The notes beneath the pieces are model-generated. The model made no database searches. It was not told the origin of the DNA and worked only from the letters and a program-made list of their open reading frames with translations. 64,000 nucleotides of DNA from an uncultured Verrucomicrobiae bacterium (GTDB lineage: Bacteria; Verrucomicrobiota; Verrucomicrobiia; Limisphaerales; UBA11358). A program made the position numbers and the translations under genes. Shown piece after piece: positions 4,691 through 17,601 of this stretch. Location: contig CAWEAA010000008.1 in NCBI GenBank assembly GCA_963806905.1, forward strand, positions 392,447-456,446, in the 5' to 3' direction. Positions within the stretch are counted from its first letter, which is position 1. Every line of letters begins with the position of its first letter.

Positions 4691-4857
4691 CGCGTTTCAG
4701 AATGCATTTATCGCCAAAGGGTAGGAGAGGCAATTCGCTCCGCAAGGTGAAAGCGCCCGAGAATAGTACATTGTATTCCCTGCCTCACTCCGTCGTTGCC
4801 CGAATTCAAGAAAGCATTTATGATACTAACTTGAGTCATACGCGCAAAACCAGTCGC

Positions 4858-6519
4858 ATGAGTGTCGAACTACATTTCAACGGTCTGCGAACCAGCGTCA
4901 CGCCGGGTTCGTCGCTGTTCGATTACGCCGAATCGCTCGGCGTGCATGTGCCGACGTCCTGCCGCAAGCAGGGCAAATGCAAGGAGTGTGTCGTGGAGGT
5001 CGTCGAAGGCATGGAGTGTCTTTCCCCACCCGTGCCGGCGGAAAAACATTTGCAGGGCCAGTTCCGGTTGTCCTGTTCCTGTAAAATCATTGCCGACCCC
5101 GGCGTGGTCCGCTGCCACACGATGCGGCGCGGGGAGATGAAAATCGAACGTCACGCGTTTCAACTCCCGACGGGAGATAAAAAATGGAAACTGGATCCTG
5201 CCGTCACCCGCGATGGCGACCGGATCCTTCTGGACGGGGAGGAAATAGAACGTTCGCCCGGGCCGATTCACGGGCTGGCGCTGGATTTGGGGACGACGAC
5301 AATCGTTCTCCGGCTCTTGAACCTGGAAACCGGCGAGGTGGTCGCCGATGCTTCATTCGAAAATCCGCAACGCTTTGGCGGCTCGGACGTGATGGCGCGC
5401 ATCCATTACGACACGCACGACCACAGCAAATTGCTGCAACGGACGCTCGCCGGATATTTGAGCCACGCCATCGAGGAATTTCCGGTTGACCCAAAGACGA
5501 TTTACGAAATGGTCGTCGCGGGCAATTCCACCATGCGCGACCTGTTCTTTCGCTTGAACGTTTATTCCATCGGCCAAAGCCCCTATCGCTCCATCACCGA
5601 ACTGGAAATGGCGGAAGGCCGCCGGACGACGACCAGCCTGGCCGAGCCGGCGAAAAAGTTGTTGTTGCCACTGCATCCCCGGGCGCGGGCCTATGGCCTG
5701 CCCATCATCAGCGGTCACGTCGGCGCGGATGCCGCCGCCTGCATGCTGGCCGCGGATCTGGCGAATGAGGAACGGCTGGTGGCCGTCATGGACATCGGCA
5801 CGAACACGGAATTGATTCTGGGAAATAAAAACAAGATTTTCGCGGCGTCCTGTCCGGCCGGCCCGGCGTTTGAGGGTGGCAAGATTTCCTGCGGCATGCC
5901 GGGACTGCCGGGCGCCATCGAAAAGGTGAAGCTCAACCCGGACGGTTCATTTGCCGTGCAAGTGATCGGCGACGGTCGCGCGGAAGGCATTTGCGGTTCC
6001 GGCCTGGTGGATTTGTTGAGTGAACTTCTGAAGAACAATCGTATCAATTCCCTGGGCCGGTTTGAGAACGGTGAGGACAGGATTGTCCTCGAGGTGAACA
6101 GCGACTCGCCGGTTTATTTCTCCGAAAGCGACATCAACGAACTGGCGCAGGCCAAGGGCGCCAATGTCGCGGGCCTGCACATTATTTTCGATCAATACGG
6201 AGCCCGATTTGAAGACTTGGGCGTTTTTTATCTGGCTGGCGGCTTTGGCCGGCATCTGGACATTGGATCCTCGAAACGCATCGGCTTGATTCCGGACATT
6301 GACGATTCAAAAATTTTGCAGGTTGGCAACGCTTCGATTGAAGGCGCCTGCATCGCCTTGTTGTCGCGGACGAAGCGCATGGAACTGGAAGATATGGTCA
6401 AACACGTGACGCACTGCCGTCTGGAAGCCCACCCGCATTTCTTCGATTACTTCGTTGAAGGCTGCCAGTTTAATCCCGTGGTATCTCCAGACGCGCCGGC
6501 GGGCCGGCAAACTTCCTGA
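4858..6519 (+). CDS. RACo-type ATP-dependent corrinoid reductive activase (2Fe-2S ferredoxin + ASKHA ATPase)
   Basis: ATG 4858 lies in frame inside ORF 4561-6519. N-terminal plant-type ferredoxin domain (SCRKQGKCKEC = C-x5-C-x2-C). Actin-fold phosphate motifs LALDLGTTTIV and VMDIGTNTE. Confidence 0.85.
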   Translation: MSVELHFNGLRTSVTPGSSLFDYAESLGVHVPTSCRKQGKCKECVVEVVEGMECLSPPVPAEKHLQGQFRLSCSCKIIADPGVVRCHTMRRGEMKIERHAFQLPTGDKKWKLDPAVTRDGDRILLDGEEIERSPGPIHGLALDLGTTTIVLRLLNLETGEVVADASFENPQRFGGSDVMARIHYDTHDHSKLLQRTLAGYLSHAIEEFPVDPKTIYEMVVAGNSTMRDLFFRLNVYSIGQSPYRSITELEMAEGRRTTTSLAEPAKKLLLPLHPRARAYGLPIISGHVGADAAACMLAADLANEERLVAVMDIGTNTELILGNKNKIFAASCPAGPAFEGGKISCGMPGLPGAIEKVKLNPDGSFAVQVIGDGRAEGICGSGLVDLLSELLKNNRINSLGRFENGEDRIVLEVNSDSPVYFSESDINELAQAKGANVAGLHIIFDQYGARFEDLGVFYLAGGFGRHLDIGSSKRIGLIPDIDDSKILQVGNASIEGACIALLSRTKRMELEDMVKHVTHCRLEAHPHFFDYFVEGCQFNPVVSPDAPAGRQTS

Positions 6520-6528
6520 ATTTTTGAC

Positions 6529-7827
6529 ATGTTCGAACTGATTGACCCCCATCCACCCGTCAACGTGCAGGAGGCCGAATACCGGCGGTTGCTCGGATAT
6601 CCGAAGCAACACGTGCCGGACGGGCGGGCGCGCGAACTCGCCGACCAGGCGCGGGCATGGTATGCGGAAAACGGGAAGCCGTGGATTTATGCCCGGCAGA
6701 CCAGCGGCCTGGAACTGAAAAATAAACGGCTGCGGATGCACGGAACGGAATTCGCGTCGAAACAGCTTCACGATCAATTTATCGTCGCTCAGGCTCACAC
6801 GGCGGTGCTCGTCGCGGTGGGCGCCGGCCGGGAATGCGAGGAGATGGCGCGCCAGCTCTGGCAGGAGGGAAAACCGGACGAATATTTTTTCATGGAGATG
6901 TATGGCTCCGCGGTGGTCGAGCATCTGGTAACGGTGGCCAGCGGCCACATCTGCGGCTGGGCCGATCAAAACGGCATGGCAGCCCTGCCGCATTACAGTC
7001 CGGGTTATTCCGGCTGGGACATATCCGATCAAATCAAACTATGGAAATTGATCCGGCAAAAACCGGGCCGCGAATTTCCCGGCGACATTCAGGTGCTGGA
7101 CACCGGGATGTTGCGGCCCAAGAAATCGCTTTTGGCGGTGTTTGGTATCACGCGGCATTTGGACACGGTGCGGAACTTGGCGACATTGGTTCCCTGCGAA
7201 AACTGCTCGCTGCCGCGCTGTCAATATCGCCGCGCGCCGTATCAGCATTCGCCGCCGCAAATTGAAGACGTGCGCCGGTTCCAGGGCGGTGCGGTTGAAA
7301 AGCCGGAAGCGCCGGTCACCGCCGGCTCAACGCTGGATCATAATGCCAGATATACCGTCAATTCCCGTGCGTTGCAAAAATGGTCGCAGGAACGGCTGCA
7401 ATTGAAATTTTTGGAGGACCGTTCGGTGGCAGCCCGCTTTCGTTACGAAGGCACCACCTGTTCCAACCTGGGGCAGCCGCTGGCATTTGACTATGAAGTA
7501 AAACTCGGGCCGCCCGACGACGGCTACCGGGTGCTGGCAACCGGTTGCGTTCCGGCTCCCGGCGACCGCGGCCACAAAGACCAGTGCGAGTATCTGAACA
7601 ACGCTGAATCGCTCATGAGCAGCATTGCAAACGAGAAACCCCTGCTCGGCAAACCCTTGAACGAGGTTCTGGCCTGGGAACGTCCCTACGATCCTTCCGG
7701 CTGTTATTGCGATTTGGCCCGGCGCGCGCATAAATGGGGCCTGGTCTTTGAGGTGATTCATTACGCACTGGTCCGGCGCGAAAAGGAAACGGGCAGTGTT
7801 GGACAACCGGCGGGTTTTTTGAAATGA
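6529..7827 (+). CDS. MetH reactivation (SAM-binding) domain-like protein fused to an uncharacterised Cys-rich C-terminal half
   Basis: 432-aa ORF starting 9 nt after the activase stop. The N-terminal ~230 aa resemble stand-alone 'vitamin B12-dependent methionine synthase activation domain' proteins (YRRLLGYP, HYSPGYSGWDISDQ). The C-terminal ~190 aa carry CENCSLPRC and GCYC, with no family recognised. Confidence 0.6.
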   Translation: MFELIDPHPPVNVQEAEYRRLLGYPKQHVPDGRARELADQARAWYAENGKPWIYARQTSGLELKNKRLRMHGTEFASKQLHDQFIVAQAHTAVLVAVGAGRECEEMARQLWQEGKPDEYFFMEMYGSAVVEHLVTVASGHICGWADQNGMAALPHYSPGYSGWDISDQIKLWKLIRQKPGREFPGDIQVLDTGMLRPKKSLLAVFGITRHLDTVRNLATLVPCENCSLPRCQYRRAPYQHSPPQIEDVRRFQGGAVEKPEAPVTAGSTLDHNARYTVNSRALQKWSQERLQLKFLEDRSVAARFRYEGTTCSNLGQPLAFDYEVKLGPPDDGYRVLATGCVPAPGDRGHKDQCEYLNNAESLMSSIANEKPLLGKPLNEVLAWERPYDPSGCYCDLARRAHKWGLVFEVIHYALVRREKETGSVGQPAGFLK

Positions 7828-7840
7828 TGCGGTACTTTCG

Positions 7841-8167
7841 ATGACAAAACTTTGCGACATCAATGCGGCGGCAAAGGAAAAACTTCCGCCCGGGTTCGCC
7901 GACAAATCGGGCATCGGCGTGCAATACACTGATGCCTTCGTCAAACCCATGAACACCAAACTTCCCGATGGCACGCGTGTCGGCTGCAAACGCAAAGGGC
8001 TGAAATTGACGCTCATCGTCGGCACCAAAAAAGGCGAAGGCTTGATGCGCCGGCTCGATGTCAGCAAAGACCCGGTCGTGATGCTGAACGCCGCCCTTCA
8101 AGAAGCCGCGAAAGCCGCCGGCGTTGAATTGAAAGTCACGGACAGCGAAATTTTTATCACCGCGTAG
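7841..8167 (+). CDS. hypothetical protein (108 aa)
   Basis: ORF 13 nt after the previous stop and 17 nt before the next start, with composition like its neighbours. No motif recognised. Confidence 0.5.
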   Translation: MTKLCDINAAAKEKLPPGFADKSGIGVQYTDAFVKPMNTKLPDGTRVGCKRKGLKLTLIVGTKKGEGLMRRLDVSKDPVVMLNAALQEAAKAAGVELKVTDSEIFITA

Positions 8168-8184
8168 TCCAGCGCCTGCGGCTT

Positions 8185-9495
8185 ATGCAAAACAAACACG
8201 CTTCCAATTTTATTATTGCGTCGTTTTTTTTGGCGGTGGCGAATTTCTGTTGCGCGCAGCCGATGGTGGTCGCGCCGGACAAACCAGGCGGCGTCTATCA
8301 GGTCGGTGACACCGTTCATTGGATGGTCGAATGGAAAGGCGGCACCAATGTGCCCGCCGCGCATTACATCCTCAAGAGCGGCGGCCAGACGGGCCTGGGA
8401 CAGGGCAACTTAACCTTCAGCAACGATGTCGCCACGCTGGAGTCGAAGTTTGACCAGCCGAACACAATGCTGGTCGAAGTGCGGTGGCAGCCGGAGAACG
8501 CCACCAATCGTGCCGTTGGCGGCGCTGTCGCCGCGCCGGATAAAATCCTGCCGGCCGCGCCGCCGCCGGCCGATTTCGATGCGTTCTGGAAGGCCAAATT
8601 GAAGGAACTGAAAAAAGTCTCCGCCCATCCGAAGCTCGAAAAAGTGGACAGTGGAAAACCGGGTGTGGCGTATTGGAAAATCACCCTGGACAACATCGGC
8701 GGCACGCATATCCAGGGACAGATTGCGCGCCCTGAAAAAGGCGAAAAATTCCCGGCCTTGTTCATCCCGCAATGGGCGGGGGTTTACGGATTGCAAAAAA
8801 ATTGGGTGACGGACCGTGCGGCGGAAGGCTGGCTGGCACTGAACATCGAACCTCATGACCTGCCGATTGACAAACCCGAAGCGTTTTACAAGGAGCAATT
8901 CGCCGGGCCGCTCAAGGATTATTGGTCCATCGGCAACGACGACCGCGACCAGAGCTATTATTTGCGGATGTATCTGTCCTGTTATCGCGCGGTTGAATAT
9001 TTGAAGACGCGCCCGGACTGGAACGGCAAAACGCTGGTGGTGATGGGCGACAGCCAGGGCGGACAGCAGACCTTGATGATCGCCGGGCTGCATCCGCAAG
9101 ACATCACCGCGGCGCTGGCGCTCGTGCCGGCGGGCGGCGACATGCTCGCACCGGAGGTCGGTCGCGCGCCGGGCTTCCCGCGCTGGTATTTCAATACCGA
9201 AGGCGGCAAAGACCCCAACAAAGTGCACGAGGCGAGCCGGTATTACGACACCGCGAACTTCGCGCGGCATATCAGATGTCCCGTGCTCGTCGGACTCGGA
9301 TTGCGCGATGAAGTTTGTCCGCCATCCAGCGTGTTTGCCTTGGAGAATCAGATCACTTCGCCCAAAGAAGTTGTTATCCTCCCGAAATCCGGCCATCAGG
9401 ACGAGCACGGTACGCAAGCTGCCTACGACAAACGCCGCTGGAGCGCCTGGCTGCCCGCGTTGCGACAAGGCAAGCCCGCGCCCGTGGAGCAATAG
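8185..9495 (+). CDS. CE7-type acetylxylan esterase
   Basis: 436 aa with a signal peptide. Alpha/beta hydrolase with nucleophile elbow GDSQGG and a C-terminal SGHQDEH region as in AXE1/cephalosporin-C deacetylase. An extra N-terminal domain is present. Confidence 0.8.
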   Translation: MQNKHASNFIIASFFLAVANFCCAQPMVVAPDKPGGVYQVGDTVHWMVEWKGGTNVPAAHYILKSGGQTGLGQGNLTFSNDVATLESKFDQPNTMLVEVRWQPENATNRAVGGAVAAPDKILPAAPPPADFDAFWKAKLKELKKVSAHPKLEKVDSGKPGVAYWKITLDNIGGTHIQGQIARPEKGEKFPALFIPQWAGVYGLQKNWVTDRAAEGWLALNIEPHDLPIDKPEAFYKEQFAGPLKDYWSIGNDDRDQSYYLRMYLSCYRAVEYLKTRPDWNGKTLVVMGDSQGGQQTLMIAGLHPQDITAALALVPAGGDMLAPEVGRAPGFPRWYFNTEGGKDPNKVHEASRYYDTANFARHIRCPVLVGLGLRDEVCPPSSVFALENQITSPKEVVILPKSGHQDEHGTQAAYDKRRWSAWLPALRQGKPAPVEQ

Positions 9496-9540: not shown

Positions 9541-11154
9541 TCAGGTATTGGGAGAACCAGCATTGATGGCATCCTTGGCCAGTTTTCCATTTACCGAACG
9601 CCAGAGGTTCAGCGGATTTTCATCTTTCAACGCGTCCGGCAGCAGCGATGCGGGAAAGTTCTGGTAACAAATCGGACGGACAAAACGATACAACGCCGCC
9701 GTGCCCACGGAAGTAAAGCGCACATCGGTCGTGGCCGGATACGGGCCGCCGTGGTTCATCGCAGGACAAACCTCAACGCCGGTTGGAAAACCGTTGACGA
9801 GCAGCCGGCCCGCCTTGCGTTCCAAAATTTGCAACAACCGCTTCGCCTGTTGAAGATCGTCCGGAGTACCGTGCACCGTGGCCGTGAGTTGGCCTTCCAG
9901 ATTTTCCGCGATGTCCTCCAATTCCGACATGGTTTGCGCCGAGATCAAAACGGCGAACGGTCCAAACACTTCCTCGGCCAGTTCAGGATGCTTCCGGAAA
10001 ATTTTTGCGTTGGTGGAAACCAAAACCGGTTCACCGTGCGTTTTCCTGGCATCCGGTGTTTCCTTCGCGCGGGCGAGCAATTTCACTCCGCTCAATTTCG
10101 AAGCGCGGACGAGTCCCTGGTGATACGATTCGCAAATTCCGGCGTGCAGCATCGTGGCCGGCGCAACATTCTCAAATGCTTGCCCGAGCGTCTTCTGAAA
10201 TTGATCGAATCCGGCGCTCTGCAAACCGAAAACCAAACCGGGCTTGGTGCAGAATTGTCCGACCCCCATCGTCACTGATGCCCGCAGGCCTTCGGAAATT
10301 TTGGCCGTCTGCCCGCGCAGCGCCGCCGGCAGGATGAATACAGGATTCAGGCTGCTCATCTCGGCGAAGACCGGAATCGGTTCCGGTCGCGCGGCGGCGG
10401 CGTCAAACAAAGCGCGTCCGGCGGCGCGCGAACCGGTGAAGCCAACCGCCCGGGCGACGGGATGCCGGACGAGTGCAGTGCCGATGATTTTGCCGGCCCC
10501 GTGCAGCATCGAGAACACACCGGCGGGCAAGTTGCCCGCCACCACGGCCCGGCGAACGGCGGCGCCCACCAGCTCCGACGTGCCCGGATGACCGCTGTGC
10601 GCTTTCACCACCACCGGGTTGCCGGTTGCCAATGCCGACGCGGTGTCACCCCCGGCCACGGAAAACGCCAGTGGGAAATTGCTCGACCCGAAAACGATCA
10701 CCGGGCCGATGGGAATCAACATCCGCCGCAAGTCGGGTTTGGGCTGCGGCTGCCGGTCGGGAATGGCCGTGTCAATGCGCGCGTCCACCCACGAACCTTC
10801 CCGGATGACCTGCGCGAACAGATTGAGCTGACTGGCGGTGCGTGCGCGTTCGCCCGTCAACCGCGCTTCGGGCAGTCCGGTTTCCTGATGCGCGCGGGTG
10901 ATGAGGTCATCGCCCAGCGCCATGATTTCATCGGCCATGCGTTCGAGAAAAGCCGCGCGCTGTTCGCCGGTGGTTTCACGATACGTTTCAAAGGCCGCCT
11001 CGGCCAGTTCCATGACGGCATCCACCTCTTTTGCCCCGGCTCTGTGGAAGGTGGGCGGCAAAGGTGTGCTGTTCAAGGGGCTGATGGCGCGGAGGGTCTT
11101 CCCAGCACCGTGGCTGAGTTGGTCGCCGACAAAATTCTGACCGTGCAAGTTCAT
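9541..11154 (-). CDS. NADP-dependent aldehyde dehydrogenase, alpha-ketoglutarate semialdehyde dehydrogenase-like
   Basis: ALDH superfamily. Catalytic Cys region GVGQFCTKPG and FGSSNFPLAF resemble 2,5-dioxovalerate dehydrogenases. ATG 11154 is preferred over the TTG at 11166 used by the ORF track. Confidence 0.8.
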   Translation of the reverse strand: MNLHGQNFVGDQLSHGAGKTLRAISPLNSTPLPPTFHRAGAKEVDAVMELAEAAFETYRETTGEQRAAFLERMADEIMALGDDLITRAHQETGLPEARLTGERARTASQLNLFAQVIREGSWVDARIDTAIPDRQPQPKPDLRRMLIPIGPVIVFGSSNFPLAFSVAGGDTASALATGNPVVVKAHSGHPGTSELVGAAVRRAVVAGNLPAGVFSMLHGAGKIIGTALVRHPVARAVGFTGSRAAGRALFDAAAARPEPIPVFAEMSSLNPVFILPAALRGQTAKISEGLRASVTMGVGQFCTKPGLVFGLQSAGFDQFQKTLGQAFENVAPATMLHAGICESYHQGLVRASKLSGVKLLARAKETPDARKTHGEPVLVSTNAKIFRKHPELAEEVFGPFAVLISAQTMSELEDIAENLEGQLTATVHGTPDDLQQAKRLLQILERKAGRLLVNGFPTGVEVCPAMNHGGPYPATTDVRFTSVGTAALYRFVRPICYQNFPASLLPDALKDENPLNLWRSVNGKLAKDAINAGSPNT

Positions 11155-11162
11155 GGCAGTTG

Positions 11163-12020
11163 TCAAACTAGCATCACCGGGTTCCGGAGCAAACCGATTC
11201 TAGTGATTTCAATCTCAACCACATCCCGTTCCTTCAGCGTAAAGGTTTCGGGTGGAACGATGCCGGTTCCCGTCAGCAGCACGGCGCCGTTGGGAAAAGC
11301 CTGGCTGCGAAAGAGAAACCCGGCCAGTTCCTCGAAGCGGCGTTTGATCTGGCCGACCAAAATCTCACCCGCAAAAACGCTCTTGCCGTTTCGCCGGATG
11401 GCCAGCCGGATTTTCCATTCTCGCGCGGCGGCTTCGTTTGCGCCGAGATGAATCCACGGACCGAGCGCGCAGGAACGGTCGTAGATTTTTGCCTGCGGCA
11501 GGTAGAGCAGATTTTCCCCTTCGATGTCGCGCGAACTCATGTCGTTGCCGATGGTGTGGCCGACGATTTTGCCTTTTGAATTCAACACCAGAGCCAATTC
11601 CGGCTCCGGCACGTTCCAGCGGGCGTCCCGGCGGATGCCAACCGGTTCACCGGTGGCAACAACTTTTTCCGCCAGCGACTTGAAAAAAAGTTCCGGCCGT
11701 TCCGCCGCGTAAACTCTGTCGTAAGCGGTGGCGCTGAAATCGGATTCCTCCATGCGGGCGGTCTTGCTGCGCAGGTAGGTGACGCCCGCCGCCCAGACTT
11801 CCTGCCGCTCCACCGGCGCGCACAATTGAACTTCCGCCAACGCAACGCGGGGCAAATTTTGTTTCGCGATTTGATTCAGTTGCGCGACCGGGTCGTCGCT
11901 TTCCAGCAGTGGATGCATTTGATGGACTCCCGCCGGGGTCAGGTCGAGCAACGTGGAATCGTCCGCGACCAGACCCACGCGGACTTGGCCTTGTTTGTCT
12001 TTGAACCGGCAGATTTTCAC
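11163..12020 (-). CDS. FAH-family hydratase, 2-keto-3-deoxy-pentonate dehydratase-like (XylX/KdaD-like)
   Basis: 285 aa with a fumarylacetoacetate-hydrolase fold (GVTYLRS, HTIGNDMSSRDIEGENLLYLPQAK). Sits between the MFS and aldehyde dehydrogenase genes on the same strand. Confidence 0.75.
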   Translation of the reverse strand: MKICRFKDKQGQVRVGLVADDSTLLDLTPAGVHQMHPLLESDDPVAQLNQIAKQNLPRVALAEVQLCAPVERQEVWAAGVTYLRSKTARMEESDFSATAYDRVYAAERPELFFKSLAEKVVATGEPVGIRRDARWNVPEPELALVLNSKGKIVGHTIGNDMSSRDIEGENLLYLPQAKIYDRSCALGPWIHLGANEAAAREWKIRLAIRRNGKSVFAGEILVGQIKRRFEELAGFLFRSQAFPNGAVLLTGTGIVPPETFTLKERDVVEIEITRIGLLRNPVMLV

Positions 12021-13389: not shown

Positions 13390-15351
13390 ATGAGTTCCAG
13401 CCACGACGTGTTCGATTCCGACATCCCGGAAATCTACGAGCTTCAGACCCATGCCCACGGTCCGGCGGGGAGCCTGCCGATTACCGAAGAAATGCTCCGG
13501 AACAGTCCCAGCGGCGATTTGTTTGGGATGACGCAAAACGCCGGCATGGGCTGGAACCCGGCCGAGACGGGGCGGAAACAGTTCCTGATTCTCAGCACGC
13601 AAGGCGGACTGCGCGCCCCAGACGGCAAACCGATTGCCCTCGGTTATCATACCGGTCATTGGGAAATCGGATTGCTCGTTCAGGCCGCGGCGGAGGAATT
13701 TCGCCGGTTGCAGGTCATTCCCTTTGCCGGGTTTTGTTCCGATCCCTGTGATGGCCGGACGCAGGGAACCACCGGCATGTTCGACAGCCTGCCGTATCGC
13801 AATGACGCCGCCATCCTTTTCCGGCGTCTCGCCCGGTCGCTGCCGCTTCGCGCCGGCGTGCTGGGCATAGCGACGTGTGACAAAGGGTTGCCGGCGATGA
13901 TGATGGCGGTGGCGGGTTTGCACGATTTGCCGTGCGTCATTGTTCCCGGCGGCGTTACGTTGCCGGCGGATGCGGCGGAAGATGCCGGCACGGTGCAAAC
14001 GCTGGGCACGCGCTTTGCGCATGGACTGGTTTCACTTTCCGAAGCTGCGGAATTGGGTTGCCGCGCCTGCGGCTCACCGGGCGGCGGCTGTCAATTTCTG
14101 GGCACGGCGGCGACTTCGCAGGTGGTCAGTGAAGCGCTTGGGCTTTCATTGCCGCACTCGGCGCTCGCACCGTCGGGTCAACCGGTATGGCTGGACATGG
14201 CCCGGCGCTCGGCCCGCGCGCTGCACCAACTGCATGAACGCAAACTCAAGGTGCGTGATATTCTAACCGATGCCAGCATCCAGAACGCGATGGCGCTGCA
14301 CGCCGCATTCGGCGGTTCAACGAATCTGTTGTTGCATATTCCGGCCATCGCCCACGCCGCCGGTCTGAAACCTCCGACGGTGGAGGATTGGATTTCCGTC
14401 AATCGCCGTGTTCCCCGGCTGGTCAGCGTATTGCCGAACGGGCCGGTTCATCATCCCACGGTTCGCGTGTTCCTGGCGGGCGGCGTGTCGGAAGTGATGT
14501 TGCATCTGCGCCACCTGGGTTTGCTAAACGTTGAGGTGATTACGGTCACGGGAAGAACCTTGGGTGAAAACCTGGATTGGTGGGAAAAATCCGAACGGCG
14601 CCGGCGTTTCCGGGAATTATTGAAGCAGCAGGACGGTGTGGACGCCGACGAAGTCATCTTTCCGCCGGACAAAGCCCGAGCGCGCGGCCTGACGTGCACG
14701 CTGGTTTTTCCGCGCGGCAATCTGGCGCCGGAAGGTTCCGTGGTGAAAGCCACGGCGATTGATCCGTCGGTCGTGGACGCGACCGGCGTTTATCGCAAGG
14801 AGGGCCCGGCGCGCGTTTTTGTGAACGAAAAGGACGCAATGGCGGCCATCAAAGCAGGGCGCATCAAGGCGGGTGATGTGCTGGTGTTGACCGGCATTGG
14901 GCCGATGGGCACGGGCATGGAAGAAACTTACCAGGTCACTGGCGCGCTCAAGCATGTGCCCTTTGGCAAACAGGTCGCGCTCCTGACCGACGCCCGTTTT
15001 TCGGGGCTTTCGACCGGCGCGTGCATCGGCCATATCGGCCCCGAAGGACTGGCGGGCGGTCCCATTGGCAAGGTTTTGGACGGCGACATCATCCGCATTC
15101 ATATTGACTGCAAGCGCAACGAGGGGAGTGTTGATTTGGTGGGAGAGGGTCAACGCCGCTTCACGCCGGAGGAAGGCCGCCGGGTGCTGGCAGCGCGCGG
15201 GCAGCGAAAGGATCTTGCGTCAAATGCTGCTTTGCCGGAGGACACGCGGCTTTGGGCGGCCCTGCAACTGGCCAGCGGCGGGACGTGGGCCGGGTGCGTG
15301 TATGACGCGGAGCAAATCATCGCAACGCTCAAAGCCGGCAGAAAAAGTTGA
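13390..15351 (+). CDS. IlvD/Edd-family sugar-acid dehydratase, YjhG/YagF (xylonate dehydratase)-like
   Basis: ATG 13390 lies in frame within ORF 12607-15351; the upstream part is antisense to the MFS gene. 653 aa. Motifs [10 protein letters not shown] and GPMGTGMEE and the length are typical of the long pentonate dehydratases. Confidence 0.85.
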
Positions 15352-15561
15352 ACCGATCAGAAATCCGGCAAGTCCAAACCCGGTTCGCACCGGCTTGGAT
15401 TCACCAAATTCGCAGGTGGCGAATTTTCGCCAACAAAAAGAATTTACTTCTTGCTGTAAACGACGTGTGCGTCATGTAGCGGTCTCGAACCCGCCCCGTC
15501 CATCAACGTTCCGACGCGGAGCCAGATACTTTGTCCGTTGATTGCGGATGGGATCGCGGTC

Positions 15562-16572: not shown

Positions 16573-17601
16573 TCAGGGAAACTTTGCTTCCAACTCCTTC
16601 TTAACGGTTTCGGCGACTTCTTCGGGCGAGCCAGCTTGCTCCGCAGGCTCGCTCCAGCGCAGTTGCGACATGTAACGGTCAGCCTGAATGAGGCCCTGCC
16701 GTTGCGCCGAGGCGTCAATACGCTCGGCGAAACGCGGCGGCAGGTTGACTCTAACTTCATCGAAATCATCCCATGCTTTCACTTCGGAAGGAATGTCCTG
16801 CCAGGAGAGAATCTGGAATTTCGATTTGGCATTCGGATCGCGCTGCCCCTTTGATTCAGCGCGCTCGGCCTTGACGGACTCGATGGTTTTCAATTTAGAC
16901 CAGGCCCTCGGCGCGGCACCTTTGCCCATCAAATAAAGGAACAAATCCACGGCGCTCGACGCATCTGCGCCATAACCATCCGCGCCGATTTCGTCGGCAT
17001 ACATCTGGCTGATGGGCGCGCCGCCGATGGCGAACTTGATATGGTTGAGGCCGCGCTCTTTAAAGCCGTCAATCACGACCTTCATGTAAATCATCGTCGT
17101 GGTCAGCAACGCGCTCATGCCGATGATTTGCGGCTTGTGCAGTTCGGTGGCGGCAAGAAATTTCTCGATGCTTTGGTCCACCCCGAGGTCATGGACTTCA
17201 AAACCCGCGCCCTCGGCCATCATACAGACGAGGTTTTTCCCAATGTCATGCAAATCGCCGCGGACGGTTCCCATGAGAACAACTCCGGACGGTTGCACGG
17301 TGGAGTCTTTTGCGGTCAGCAACGGTTTCAACACGGTCATGCCGGCTTTCATGGCGCGGGCGGCAATCAGCACTTCGGGCACGTAGAGAATGTTGCGTTT
17401 GAAGTCCTCGCCCACGACGCTCATGCCGGCGATCAATCCCTCGGTCAAAACTTCCTGAACGTTCCGGCCTTCAGCCAGAGCGTCTTTGGTCATCTGTTCG
17501 ACCTCCTTGGCCTTGCCTTCGTACAGGCACTGGTTCATTAACGCGTAGTCTGGCATCTGGTCTTTCTCTTTCGAAAAATCCTGAAAATTACCGCTTGGCA
17601 T
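16573..17601 (-). CDS. corrinoid (B12-binding) protein with C-terminal ~110-aa extension
   Basis: 342 aa. Helical cap plus Rossmann B12-binding domain with DxHxxG (GDLHDIGKN), MSALLTTT and a GG motif. Alternative ATG at 17556. Confidence 0.85.
   Translation of the reverse strand: MPSGNFQDFSKEKDQMPDYALMNQCLYEGKAKEVEQMTKDALAEGRNVQEVLTEGLIAGMSVVGEDFKRNILYVPEVLIAARAMKAGMTVLKPLLTAKDSTVQPSGVVLMGTVRGDLHDIGKNLVCMMAEGAGFEVHDLGVDQSIEKFLAATELHKPQIIGMSALLTTTMIYMKVVIDGFKERGLNHIKFAIGGAPISQMYADEIGADGYGADASSAVDLFLYLMGKGAAPRAWSKLKTIESVKAERAESKGQRDPNAKSKFQILSWQDIPSEVKAWDDFDEVRVNLPPRFAERIDASAQRQGLIQADRYMSQLRWSEPAEQAGSPEEVAETVKKELEAKFP

Follow-up and report, generated by a model that had tools for sequence, protein, structure and literature searches.

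Conserved Gene Trio Predicted to Reactivate a Modular Corrinoid Methyltransferase, Located within a Glucuronoxylan-Utilization Island of an Uncultured Verrucomicrobiae Bacterium

Corrinoid methyltransferases are inactivated when the Co(I) form of their cofactor is oxidized, and two routes of repair are known: ATP-driven reduction, as carried out by the activases RACo, RamA, and AE, and reductive methylation coupled to S-adenosylmethionine (SAM or AdoMet), as carried out by the activation domain of the methionine synthase MetH. RACo-type activases spend ATP to move an electron from their Fe−S cluster onto the Co(II) of a corrinoid protein; in MetH, the activation domain sits over the cobalamin as a cap, and AdoMet methylates Co(I), which is thereby held as methyl-Co(III). 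Activases of the RACo/RamA kind, MetH activation domains that stand alone, and corrinoid methyltransferases of modular build have thus far all been described. Here, we analyze a locus in which both types of reactivation module sit side by side, found in a stretch of 64,000 nucleotides from an uncultured Verrucomicrobiae bacterium (contig CAWEAA010000008.1, positions 392,447 to 456,446), which as a whole is referred to below as the window. The locus comprises genes for a RACo-like activase (ORF1), for a protein with a MetH-activation-like N-terminal domain (ORF2, hereafter P2), and for a small protein of 108 amino acids (ORF3, hereafter P3), followed by a gene for an esterase (ORF4). With a probability of roughly 0.65, we consider the first three genes, the trio, to be the reactivation unit of a modular corrinoid methyltransferase, which is housed here within a glucuronoxylan-utilization island.

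The four open reading frames (ORFs) lie on the + strand at 4858−6519, 6529−7827, 7841−8167, and 8185−9495, as read from the ORF listing and the raw sequence; they encode 553 (from an ATG at 4858), 432, 108, and 436 amino acids, respectively, and are separated by gaps of 9, 13, and 17 nt. A GH67 alpha-glucuronidase gene on the − strand (2141−4690, with all three Pfam GH67 domains, N/M/C) diverges from ORF1 across a spacer of 167 nt (4691−4857). A preliminary description of the region, made from the sequence alone, had given this arrangement of four same-strand frames, their gaps, and the spacer with exact coordinates, and its gene identities (an activase, a MetH-activation-like protein, a 108-aa ORF, a CE7 esterase, and GH67) were borne out by domain, profile, and fold matches. 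A longer, TTG-initiated frame for ORF1, starting from 4561, was rejected as an artefact of the mechanical ORF rule.

How these genes belong together was examined in other genomes. A genome scan with P2 yielded 80 related loci (numbered with L below, the window itself being W), mostly metagenome-assembled genomes (MAGs) from peat, bog, and soil labeled as Verrucomicrobiota/Limisphaerales, Acidobacteriota, Ignavibacteria/Bacteroidota, and Planctomycetota, in which genes were counted by tblastn of the window proteins. P2 was recovered in 79 of the 80 loci, P3 in 77, and RACo in 75, followed by a homocysteine S-methyltransferase (HcyMT, PF02574) in 59, a corrinoid protein in 54, and a URO-D-like methyltransferase in 51. 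The remaining genes of the region are much rarer in these loci: a pterin-binding methyltransferase and an amidohydrolase occur in 14 each, MTHFR in 13, FAH in 11, CE15 in nine, IlvD/Edd in six, GH67 in five, CE7 in four, and ALDH in three. Spacing within the trio is operon-like throughout, with a median RACo-to-P2 gap of 5 nt (at most 50 nt in 64 of 74 cases, with many overlaps of 1 or 4 nt), a median P2-to-P3 gap of 14 nt, and, where the homocysteine methyltransferase follows P2, a median of −4 nt, i.e., an overlap. One representative protein of 948 residues (P0187) is a natural fusion of RACo and P2. The order of genes around the trio varies between lineages: Acidobacteria and Planctomycetes carry UROD-CP-RACo-P2-HcyMT-P3 on one strand as a single operon (CP, corrinoid protein), Ignavibacteria and Bacteroidota carry RACo-P2-P3-UROD-CP, and Verrucomicrobia carry RACo-P2-P3 with the homocysteine methyltransferase upstream on the other strand and a convergent CP-UROD pair downstream. 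Seven of the assemblies (L015, L019, L020, L024, L034, L018, and L077) bear implausible labels such as Bifidobacteriaceae, Saccharimonadales, Limnocylindrales, or Patescibacteria, together with a gene content that is clearly Verrucomicrobia-like, and they are probably misbinned or mislabeled.

The observation in the preliminary description that an ATP-driven RACo type and a MetH-type module stand side by side is therefore not peculiar to this genome: the pair recurs in about 75 of the 80 loci and in five phyla, and it is further backed by frequent translational coupling and by the P0187 fusion. Because the three genes are conserved together with operon-like gaps and because RACo and P2 are fused in one protein, we regard it as highly probable that RACo, P2, and P3 form one functional unit. 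The esterase lies outside it.

The first member of the trio, ORF1, has an N-terminal [2Fe-2S] ferredoxin domain (Pfam Fer2, E = 3.9e-10, residues 11−76), a middle domain (Raco_middle, PF17651, 2.1e-35), and an ASKHA ATPase domain (RACo_C_ter, PF14574, 3.9e-71), and it matches the RACo structure 3ZYY with E = 4.5e-64 over residues 137−535. Its translation displays a CX5CX2C...C pattern as well as the motifs DLGTTT and DIGTNTE. Against the curated NCBIfam models, it scores 301.6 bits for AcsV (cutoff 800) and 152 for RamA (cutoff 500), and since both scores fall so far short, ORF1 is classified, by sequence, as a member of the RACo/RamA (COG3894) family and not as an orthologue or equivalog of the characterized AcsV or RamA. 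A cognate corrinoid protein is encoded in its vicinity, at 16573−17601 in the window and within 8 kb in the 54 loci counted above. By analogy with the characterized activases, ORF1 probably acts as an ATP-dependent Co(II) to Co(I) reductase.

P2 is a more unusual protein. It has no match in Pfam (E up to 10), in NCBIfam, or, by single-sequence phmmer, in the PDB, and its homologues, which number in the thousands and fall into 1200 representative clusters in an exhaustive search, are every one annotated as "hypothetical protein" without a precomputed Pfam domain. In an alignment of 33 sequences, P2 shows two conserved blocks with a variable linker between them, and the profile built from it matches PDB entry 1J6R (TM0269) with E = 1.9e-11 over profile positions 8−215. 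The AlphaFold (AF2) model of P2, with a pLDDT of 86.2 and disorder limited to the linker (242−265) and the C-terminal tail (425−432), agrees with this assignment: Foldseek returns 1J6R first (E = 4.5e-10, TM-score 0.81, root-mean-square deviation 2.5 Å), along with the MetH reactivation domains of Thermus, Escherichia coli, and human at E = 2e-6 to 1e-3; the entries 8SSE, 6BDY, 1MSK, and 2O2K match at 2e-6 to 2e-4. On the strength of this model and profile, residues 1−240 of P2 are assigned to the MetH activation fold, in a strongly diverged, TM0269-like version. The earlier designation of the whole ORF as MetH-activation-like thus holds for residues 1−240 and fails for the remainder of the protein, which consists of a CxxCx4C linker motif and a Cys-rich C-terminal domain (270−425) of about 150 residues. 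For this C-terminal domain, Foldseek gave no significant structural neighbor, only sub-threshold NTF2-like matches, none of which was assigned.

In the E. coli MetH structure, AdoMet is bound through the fingerprint RxxxGY. At the corresponding site, P2 has H-Y-S-P-G-Y within the motif LPHYSPGYxxW; among 64 full-length orthologues, the P, G, and Y are invariant or nearly so, and the SPGY-W motif is invariant. The same 64 sequences share nine invariant cysteines (C142, C223, C226, C231, C311, C340, C353, C392, and C394), three of which (C223/C226/C231) make up the CxxCx4C linker, and since all nine are invariant, we infer that the Cys-rich parts of P2 may bind a metal or an Fe−S center.

P3 shares with P2 the lack of any described family: it has no match in Pfam (E up to 10), NCBIfam, or a PDB single-sequence search, its profile finds only chance-level RPB7 matches in the PDB, its AF2 model is poor (pLDDT 53.5), and not one of its 6787 homologues carries a Pfam domain. 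Nevertheless, this number of homologues and the high identity across phyla establish, at the level of sequence, that P3 is a real gene. Across loci of all five phyla, P3 is 61−98% identical to the window protein, exceeding both RACo (60−93%) and P2 (43−95%). In the same operons (loci L005−L079), the URO-D-like protein reaches a cross-phylum identity of 75−90% and thus, like P3, is far better conserved than RACo or P2, which is an unusual constraint for a substrate-specific methyltransferase.

The preliminary description had left the activase with the esterase as its sole partner. This does not hold, since a set of client genes for corrinoid-dependent methyl transfer lies in the same window, beginning 7.4 kb downstream of the trio and oriented convergently to it (15562−18634, − strand). 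A URO-D-fold protein of the MtaA/CmuA family (17588−18634), a candidate for the methyl-donor-specific methyltransferase I (MT I), matches Pfam URO-D with E = 2.4e-45; its best PDB match is MtaA (4AY7, E = 3.2e-11), and CdmB is also among its PDB matches. It lacks the Cys zinc ligands, having H-N-D...G where the zinc ligands of MtaA read H-I-C...C. A pattern of this kind is typical of O- rather than S-methyltransferases of the URO-D superfamily (PMC10418091). The corrinoid protein at 16573−17601, the presumed substrate of the activase, combines B12-binding_2 and B12-binding domains with a DxHxxG motif (DLHDIG), and comes nearest, among the NCBIfam models, to MtgC and pyl_corrinoid, without reaching the cutoff of either; its C-terminal residues 266−342 additionally match the Pfam domain "Virulence_fact" (PF13769, E = 8e-14). 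A pterin-binding methyltransferase of the methyl-tetrahydrofolate:corrinoid type (15562−16491; Pterin_bind, E = 6.7e-17; NCBIfam PRK07535 below cutoff) is a candidate for methyltransferase II (MT II). All three client proteins fall below the curated NCBIfam cutoffs, yet together with RACo they complete the classical list of a four-component corrinoid demethylase, namely MT I, corrinoid protein, MT II, and activase. A homocysteine methyltransferase (PF02574) is absent from the entire 64-kb window.

A close relative of the window, L009 (95% nucleotide identity), allows the trio to be separated from canonical MetH. In L009, the place taken in the window by the block 9541−16491 is occupied by a complete metH (L009 10996−15045), situated between the CE7 gene and the corrinoid protein gene and encoding all five Pfam modules, PF02965 included (E = 7.5e-122). 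Since this MetH is complete and carries its own PF02965 domain, P2 is not the detached activation domain of a truncated MetH, and we accordingly rejected the idea that P2 supplies a missing MetH activation domain; the RACo-P2-P3 cluster is a system additional to canonical MetH. The exchange between the metH region and the block at 9541−16491, which comprises ALDH, FAH, IlvD/Edd, and the pterin methyltransferase, and the deletion of most of GH67 in L009 also indicate that the glucuronoxylan island is reshuffled at the strain level.

Taken together, these data suggest the following model. RACo, P2, and P3 would constitute one conserved, co-translated unit that restores the active state of the cobalt in a partner corrinoid protein. 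The partner system would consist here of the URO-D-like methyl-donor enzyme, the corrinoid protein, and the pterin-binding methyltransferase (15562−18634), and in most other genomes would also include the homocysteine S-methyltransferase. RACo would draw on ATP and on its [2Fe-2S] cluster to transfer an electron to Co(II); the N-terminal domain of P2 would dock on the corrinoid protein in the manner of the MetH activation domain and may use S-adenosylmethionine, trapping Co(I) as methyl-Co(III); the Cys-rich linker and C-terminal domain of P2 probably bind metal or Fe−S centers that feed or gate the electron; and P3 would serve as an obligatory small accessory subunit with a structural or regulatory role. 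The esterase would be a recent, lineage-specific gene lodged behind the trio, probably read through from the promoter of the trio and secreted, with no part in corrinoid chemistry. We propose such a composite reactivation machine because of the fusion and the coupling data and by analogy with RACo, MetH, and RamA-DUF1638. In aerobic Alphaproteobacteria, a RamA-like activase together with an obligate uncharacterized partner (DUF1638) is needed for split B12 methyltransferases (PMC5764234, PMC12478193). The individual sub-roles, i.e., those of P2 and P3, the use of SAM, and metal binding, are put forward with less confidence than the assignment of the trio as a whole.

Several observations weigh against this model and have to be set beside it. 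P2 has no PF02965 match even at permissive thresholds, nor do eight P2-N relatives of about 240 residues that were scanned against Pfam for a transitive link, and an hhalign comparison of the P2 profile with the bona fide MetH activation domain of L009 was not significant (probability 0.3%), so that the connection of P2 to MetH stands on 1J6R and on the fold. The Arg of the fingerprint is replaced by His in 63 of the 64 P2 orthologues, whereas TM0269 has R-I-S-P-G-Y at this site, which makes SAM binding by P2 uncertain. Neither the C-terminal domain of P2 nor P3 has recognizable fold relatives by Foldseek or by PDB profile search, and the roles proposed for them are accordingly guesses. In close relatives, an intact MetH that includes an activation domain stands beside the cluster, and the model does not account for the need for an additional SAM-type module. 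In Limisphaerales, the position directly behind P3 is taken repeatedly by esterases from three unrelated families, which is more than a pure passenger would predict. Finally, co-transcription and all of the activities discussed here are predictions from sequence.

The fourth gene of the locus, ORF4, is a predicted AXE1/CE7-like serine esterase on sequence grounds, with an AXE1 match of E = 4.4e-38 over residues 124−412 and the sequence GDSQG, a GxSQG-type nucleophile motif, in its translation; an RGQ motif is not evident in it. Classical CE7 enzymes are cytoplasmic and are not known to have a signal peptide or an N-terminal extra region of about 120 residues. While ORF4 shares the AXE1 domain and the GxSQG-type motif with the CE7 acetyl xylan esterases and cephalosporin-C deacetylases, its translation begins with a hydrophobic, signal-peptide-like N-terminus followed by just such an extra region of about 120 residues. 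The preliminary description had made the conservation of the four-gene order the test of its own proposal, and by that measure the order is lineage-specific: CE7 directly follows P3 only in L003 and L009, with CE15 intervening in L001 and GH2, GH43, and GDSL genes intervening in L002. These four loci are the closest relatives of the window (P2 identity at least 87%), and because the exact order is limited to them, it is young. Elsewhere, the slot after P3 is filled by other co-directional genes, namely GDSL in L016, L017, and L021 (in L017 followed by CE15) and a GH2-like gene in L013.

Whether the esterase is transcribed with the trio can be judged only from signals in the sequence. Scans of 4400−9800 for sigma-70-type promoters and for terminators gave no excess over shuffled sequences, with the qualification that the sigma-70 consensus used does not cover Verrucomicrobial promoters. 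RNA folds at the three junctions and at the CE7 3' end have z-scores of −0.4 to +1.4; the preliminary description had named terminators between the genes as evidence that would overturn co-transcription, and the junctions show no terminator-like structure or excess fold. A promoter-like site on the + strand at 4796−4824 (TTGCCC-17 nt-TATGAT), about 34 nt 5' of the RACo start, lies inside a block that is conserved in W, L009, L003, L014, and L064 and that persists in L003 despite unrelated sequence further upstream and the absence of GH67. This conservation lends modest support to the site as a putative promoter for the trio plus the downstream gene or genes, and co-transcription of the esterase with the trio is plausible.

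An alternative that bears directly on this point is that the esterase is transcriptionally independent, driven by a promoter within the 3'-terminal part of P3, and that the tight spacing reflects genome compaction only. The slot after P3 is highly variable (CE7; CE15 + CE7; GH2-GH43-GDSL-CE7; GDSL; the metH region; corrinoid genes), as would be expected from frequent insertion, and the sigma-70 scan might overlook a Verrucomicrobial promoter; on the other hand, the 17-nt gap is too short for a promoter, the sequence following P3 shows no terminator-like structure (z = 0.09), and the sigma-70 scan reported no promoter-like site in the 3' end of P3, so that we hold this alternative to be possible but doubtful. 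Of comparable, tentative standing is the proposal that the trio serves an alternative methionine synthase, cobalamin-dependent and split in the manner of the MtgBCDE/split-MetH type, in which the URO-D-like (or the pterin) protein loads the methyl group, the homocysteine methyltransferase unloads it, the trio simply reactivates, and the carbohydrate genes are irrelevant neighbors. It draws on the presence of the homocysteine methyltransferase (PF02574, E = 1e-56) in 59 of the 80 loci and on its position between P2 and P3 in the operon of Acidobacteria and Planctomycetes, on the proximity of the corrinoid protein to the MtgC models, and on the published split MetH/MtgBCDE systems, which use a RamA-like activase with an uncharacterized partner (PMC5764234, PMC12478193). 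It has to contend with the missing homocysteine methyltransferase in the 64 kb of the window, with the absence of the pterin-binding module from 66 of the 80 loci, and with the complete five-module MetH that stands beside the cluster in L001 and L009, where a second synthase is not obviously needed; moreover, DUF1638 did not turn up among the annotated neighbors, although the flanks were not scanned exhaustively.

Two further readings appear unlikely to us. One holds that there is a functional link to xylan, with the URO-D-like protein, the corrinoid protein, and RACo-P2-P3 acting as a corrinoid O-demethylase of 4-O-methyl-glucuronate, a substrate freed from glucuronoxylan by GH67/GH115 alpha-glucuronidases and CE15, whose methyl group would be handed on to tetrahydrofolate or homocysteine; the same regulon would include the esterase and GH67. 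The URO-D-like protein indeed lacks the Cys zinc ligands of thiol methyltransferases, a pattern described for O-methyltransferases (PMC10418091), and genes for (methyl)glucuronate use turn up repeatedly at distances of up to 8 kb from the trio. A GH67 gene diverges from RACo in W, L013, L014, L064, and L069 and lies downstream in L061 (Bryobacteraceae), though most of it is deleted in L009 and L003 has none; GH115 occurs in L019 and one further flank; CE15 occurs in nine loci, among them one of Acidobacteriaceae (L043) and one of Phycisphaerales (L067), where it stands between P2 and the homocysteine methyltransferase; and a UxuA-family gene occurs in five. The window itself contains GH67, CE7, CE15 (23258−24568), and a block of ALDH, FAH, and IlvD/Edd genes for sugar-acid catabolism (9541−15351), and the three esterase families behind P3 in Limisphaerales are co-directional with the trio. 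Most loci, however, including nearly all those of Acidobacteriaceae with their DnaE2/ImuB-type flanks, are free of uronate genes; the partner found most often is the homocysteine methyltransferase (59/80), which points to methionine or C1 metabolism; an identity of 75−90% across phyla for the URO-D-like protein is a better fit to a universal small substrate than to a niche sugar acid; carbohydrate-active enzymes abound in the phyla concerned, and one ancestral arrangement underlies many of the GH67 cases, leaving few independent events against a background rate that is assumed; and a literature search found nothing that ties methylglucuronate to corrinoid demethylation. The pairing of esterase and activase is mostly explained by local gene-island architecture, although the recurrence of non-homologous esterases behind P3 and of (methyl)glucuronate genes near the cluster keeps some regulatory or metabolic tie to glucuronoxylan use conceivable. 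The methylglucuronate idea is for these reasons a minority hypothesis. Its more elaborate form, an oxygen-tolerant 4-O-methyl-glucuronate O-demethylase of soil Verrucomicrobiota, Acidobacteriota, and allies, with a hybrid reactivation by RACo (ATP) and P2 (SAM trapping) and with the esterase and GH67 in the same pathway, strikes us as less likely still. The other reading makes P2 the real target of the activase: the RACo-like ATPase would energize electrons for the Fe−S centers of P2, for low-potential or SAM-dependent chemistry, much as ASKHA activators do for 2-hydroxyacyl-CoA dehydratases or double-cubane cluster proteins. The nine invariant cysteines and novel C-terminal domain of P2, the strict RACo-P2 coupling and the fusion protein, and the 26 of 80 loci without a corrinoid protein in the examined flank would all fit, and the literature (PMC7317905, PMC9351452) gives a precedent, in that ASKHA ATPases that energize electrons for noncorrinoid targets are known. 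This reading is nevertheless improbable, given that ORF1 possesses a RACo-specific middle domain (PF17651), the part of RACo that touches the corrinoid protein, that 54 of the 80 loci do have a corrinoid protein and many of the remainder are truncated contigs, and that the N-terminal domain of P2 has the very fold that caps cobalamin in MetH. We therefore retain the assignment of the trio as the reactivation unit of a modular corrinoid methyltransferase.

The remaining genes of the region complete the picture of the island. Between the esterase and the client genes lies the putative sugar-acid or pentonate catabolic block, identified by Pfam and NCBIfam matches, with ALDH at 9541−11166 (−), an FAH-family gene at 11163−12020 (−), and an IlvD/Edd-family dehydratase at about 13399−15351 (+). 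The mechanical ORF of the latter includes some 260 additional codons (12607−13398, +) upstream of the Pfam-supported start region near 13399; this Arg-rich, low-complexity N-terminal extension is probably not translated. An amidohydrolase remnant of 67 aa at 15360−15554 (−; tblastn, 43% identity over 67 aa to the amidohydrolase of L025) abuts the end of IlvD/Edd and therefore looks like a truncation scar; in 14 other loci, an amidohydrolase gene comes after that of the pterin methyltransferase. The URO-D-like gene has as its immediate neighbor an integrase-core (rve) ORF (18912−20108, −), which may represent a mobile element active in local rearrangements, and the remnant and the integrase-like ORF are both signs of rearrangement. 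The CE15 glucuronoyl esterase gene (23258−24568, +) is located between genes for an ArgC-like semialdehyde dehydrogenase (21267−22307) and ArgJ (24547−25995), the ORF of which it overlaps by 22 nt, so that a carbohydrate esterase has apparently been inserted in an arginine-biosynthesis operon. Further downstream, a HemN-like radical SAM gene (50783−52159, +) and a flavin amine-oxidase-family gene, possibly protoporphyrinogen-oxidase-like (52972−54690, +), suggest a heme or tetrapyrrole biosynthesis cluster. In other genomes, the Terracidiphilus/Acidobacteriaceae loci L045, L047, L049, L050, and L053 have a DnaE2/ImuB/RecA-like mutagenesis cassette after the corrinoid operon, on the opposite strand; the large F26 neighbors in Acidobacteriaceae had been suspected to be GH115, a suspicion that was rejected when they turned out to be DnaE2/ImuB/RecA-like.

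The part of the preliminary description worth following is, in our view, not its link to the esterase but its side remark on the two reactivation modules, since both types are joined here in one deeply conserved unit and fused once. We did not find the obligate or fused pairing of the two module types, the Cys-rich domain, or the P3 family described in Pfam, NCBIfam, the PDB, or the literature searched. Two families without a Pfam or NCBIfam model, to which thousands of metagenomic "hypothetical" sequences belong, are placed in abundant soil and peat heterotrophs of five phyla. Should P2 and P3 indeed help in reactivation, they would illustrate how methyl transfer that depends on B12 persists outside strict anaerobes, and two large orphan families would receive a name. 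The methyl donor handled by the URO-D-like enzyme would itself be of relevance to the carbon cycle, with methyl ethers of plant polymers, halomethanes, or a folate-type carrier as candidates.

Compared with the described activases, i.e., RACo of Carboxydothermus hydrogenoformans (3ZYY/4C1N), the AE of acetogen O-demethylases, and archaeal RamA, ORF1 has the same domain set and the same proximity to a corrinoid protein and methyltransferases. It is, however, shorter than RACo (553 vs 631 aa) and falls below the AcsV and RamA cutoffs; its hosts are heterotrophs of soil and peat rather than acetogens or methanogens; and its family is always accompanied here by P2 and P3, whereas the known RACo, AE, and RamA systems are without them. 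P2 in turn shares with TM0269 of Thermotoga maritima, a stand-alone MetH activation domain (1J6R), the fold, the profile homology, and the SPGY motif over residues 1−240. Relative to the MetH activation domain, it adds the CxxCx4C motif and the Cys-rich domain of 150 aa, has His in place of the fingerprint Arg, and gives no PF02965 match; and while MetH relies on flavodoxin, P2 is coupled or fused to an ATP-dependent activase.

At the level of the whole system, the window encodes all four component types of the four-component O-demethylases of acetogens and Desulfitobacterium and of the related CmuA/CmuB and CdmBCA systems. The components are nevertheless distributed here over two convergent units 7.4 kb apart and score below the curated cutoffs, MT II is absent from most related loci, which have the homocysteine methyltransferase instead, and P2 and P3 are extra. 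The type 1 mlp clusters of Kountz and Balskus were considered as the same system and rejected, as they have His-Cys-Cys URO-D proteins, come from strict anaerobes, and contain no P2 or P3. The split MetH/MtgBCDE systems of Phaeobacter inhibens and Ruegeria pomeroyi (PMC5764234, PMC12478193) differ in phylum and habitat and in their modules, the substrate module having an MttB fold there and a URO-D fold here, the partners being DUF1638 there and P2/P3 here, and the homocysteine module being missing from the window. They nonetheless follow the same modular logic, likewise in bacteria that are neither methanogens nor acetogens, in which homocysteine binding, pterin binding, and the corrinoid are assigned to separate proteins, joined by a methyltransferase specific for the substrate and by a RamA-like activase that has an obligate, uncharacterized partner.

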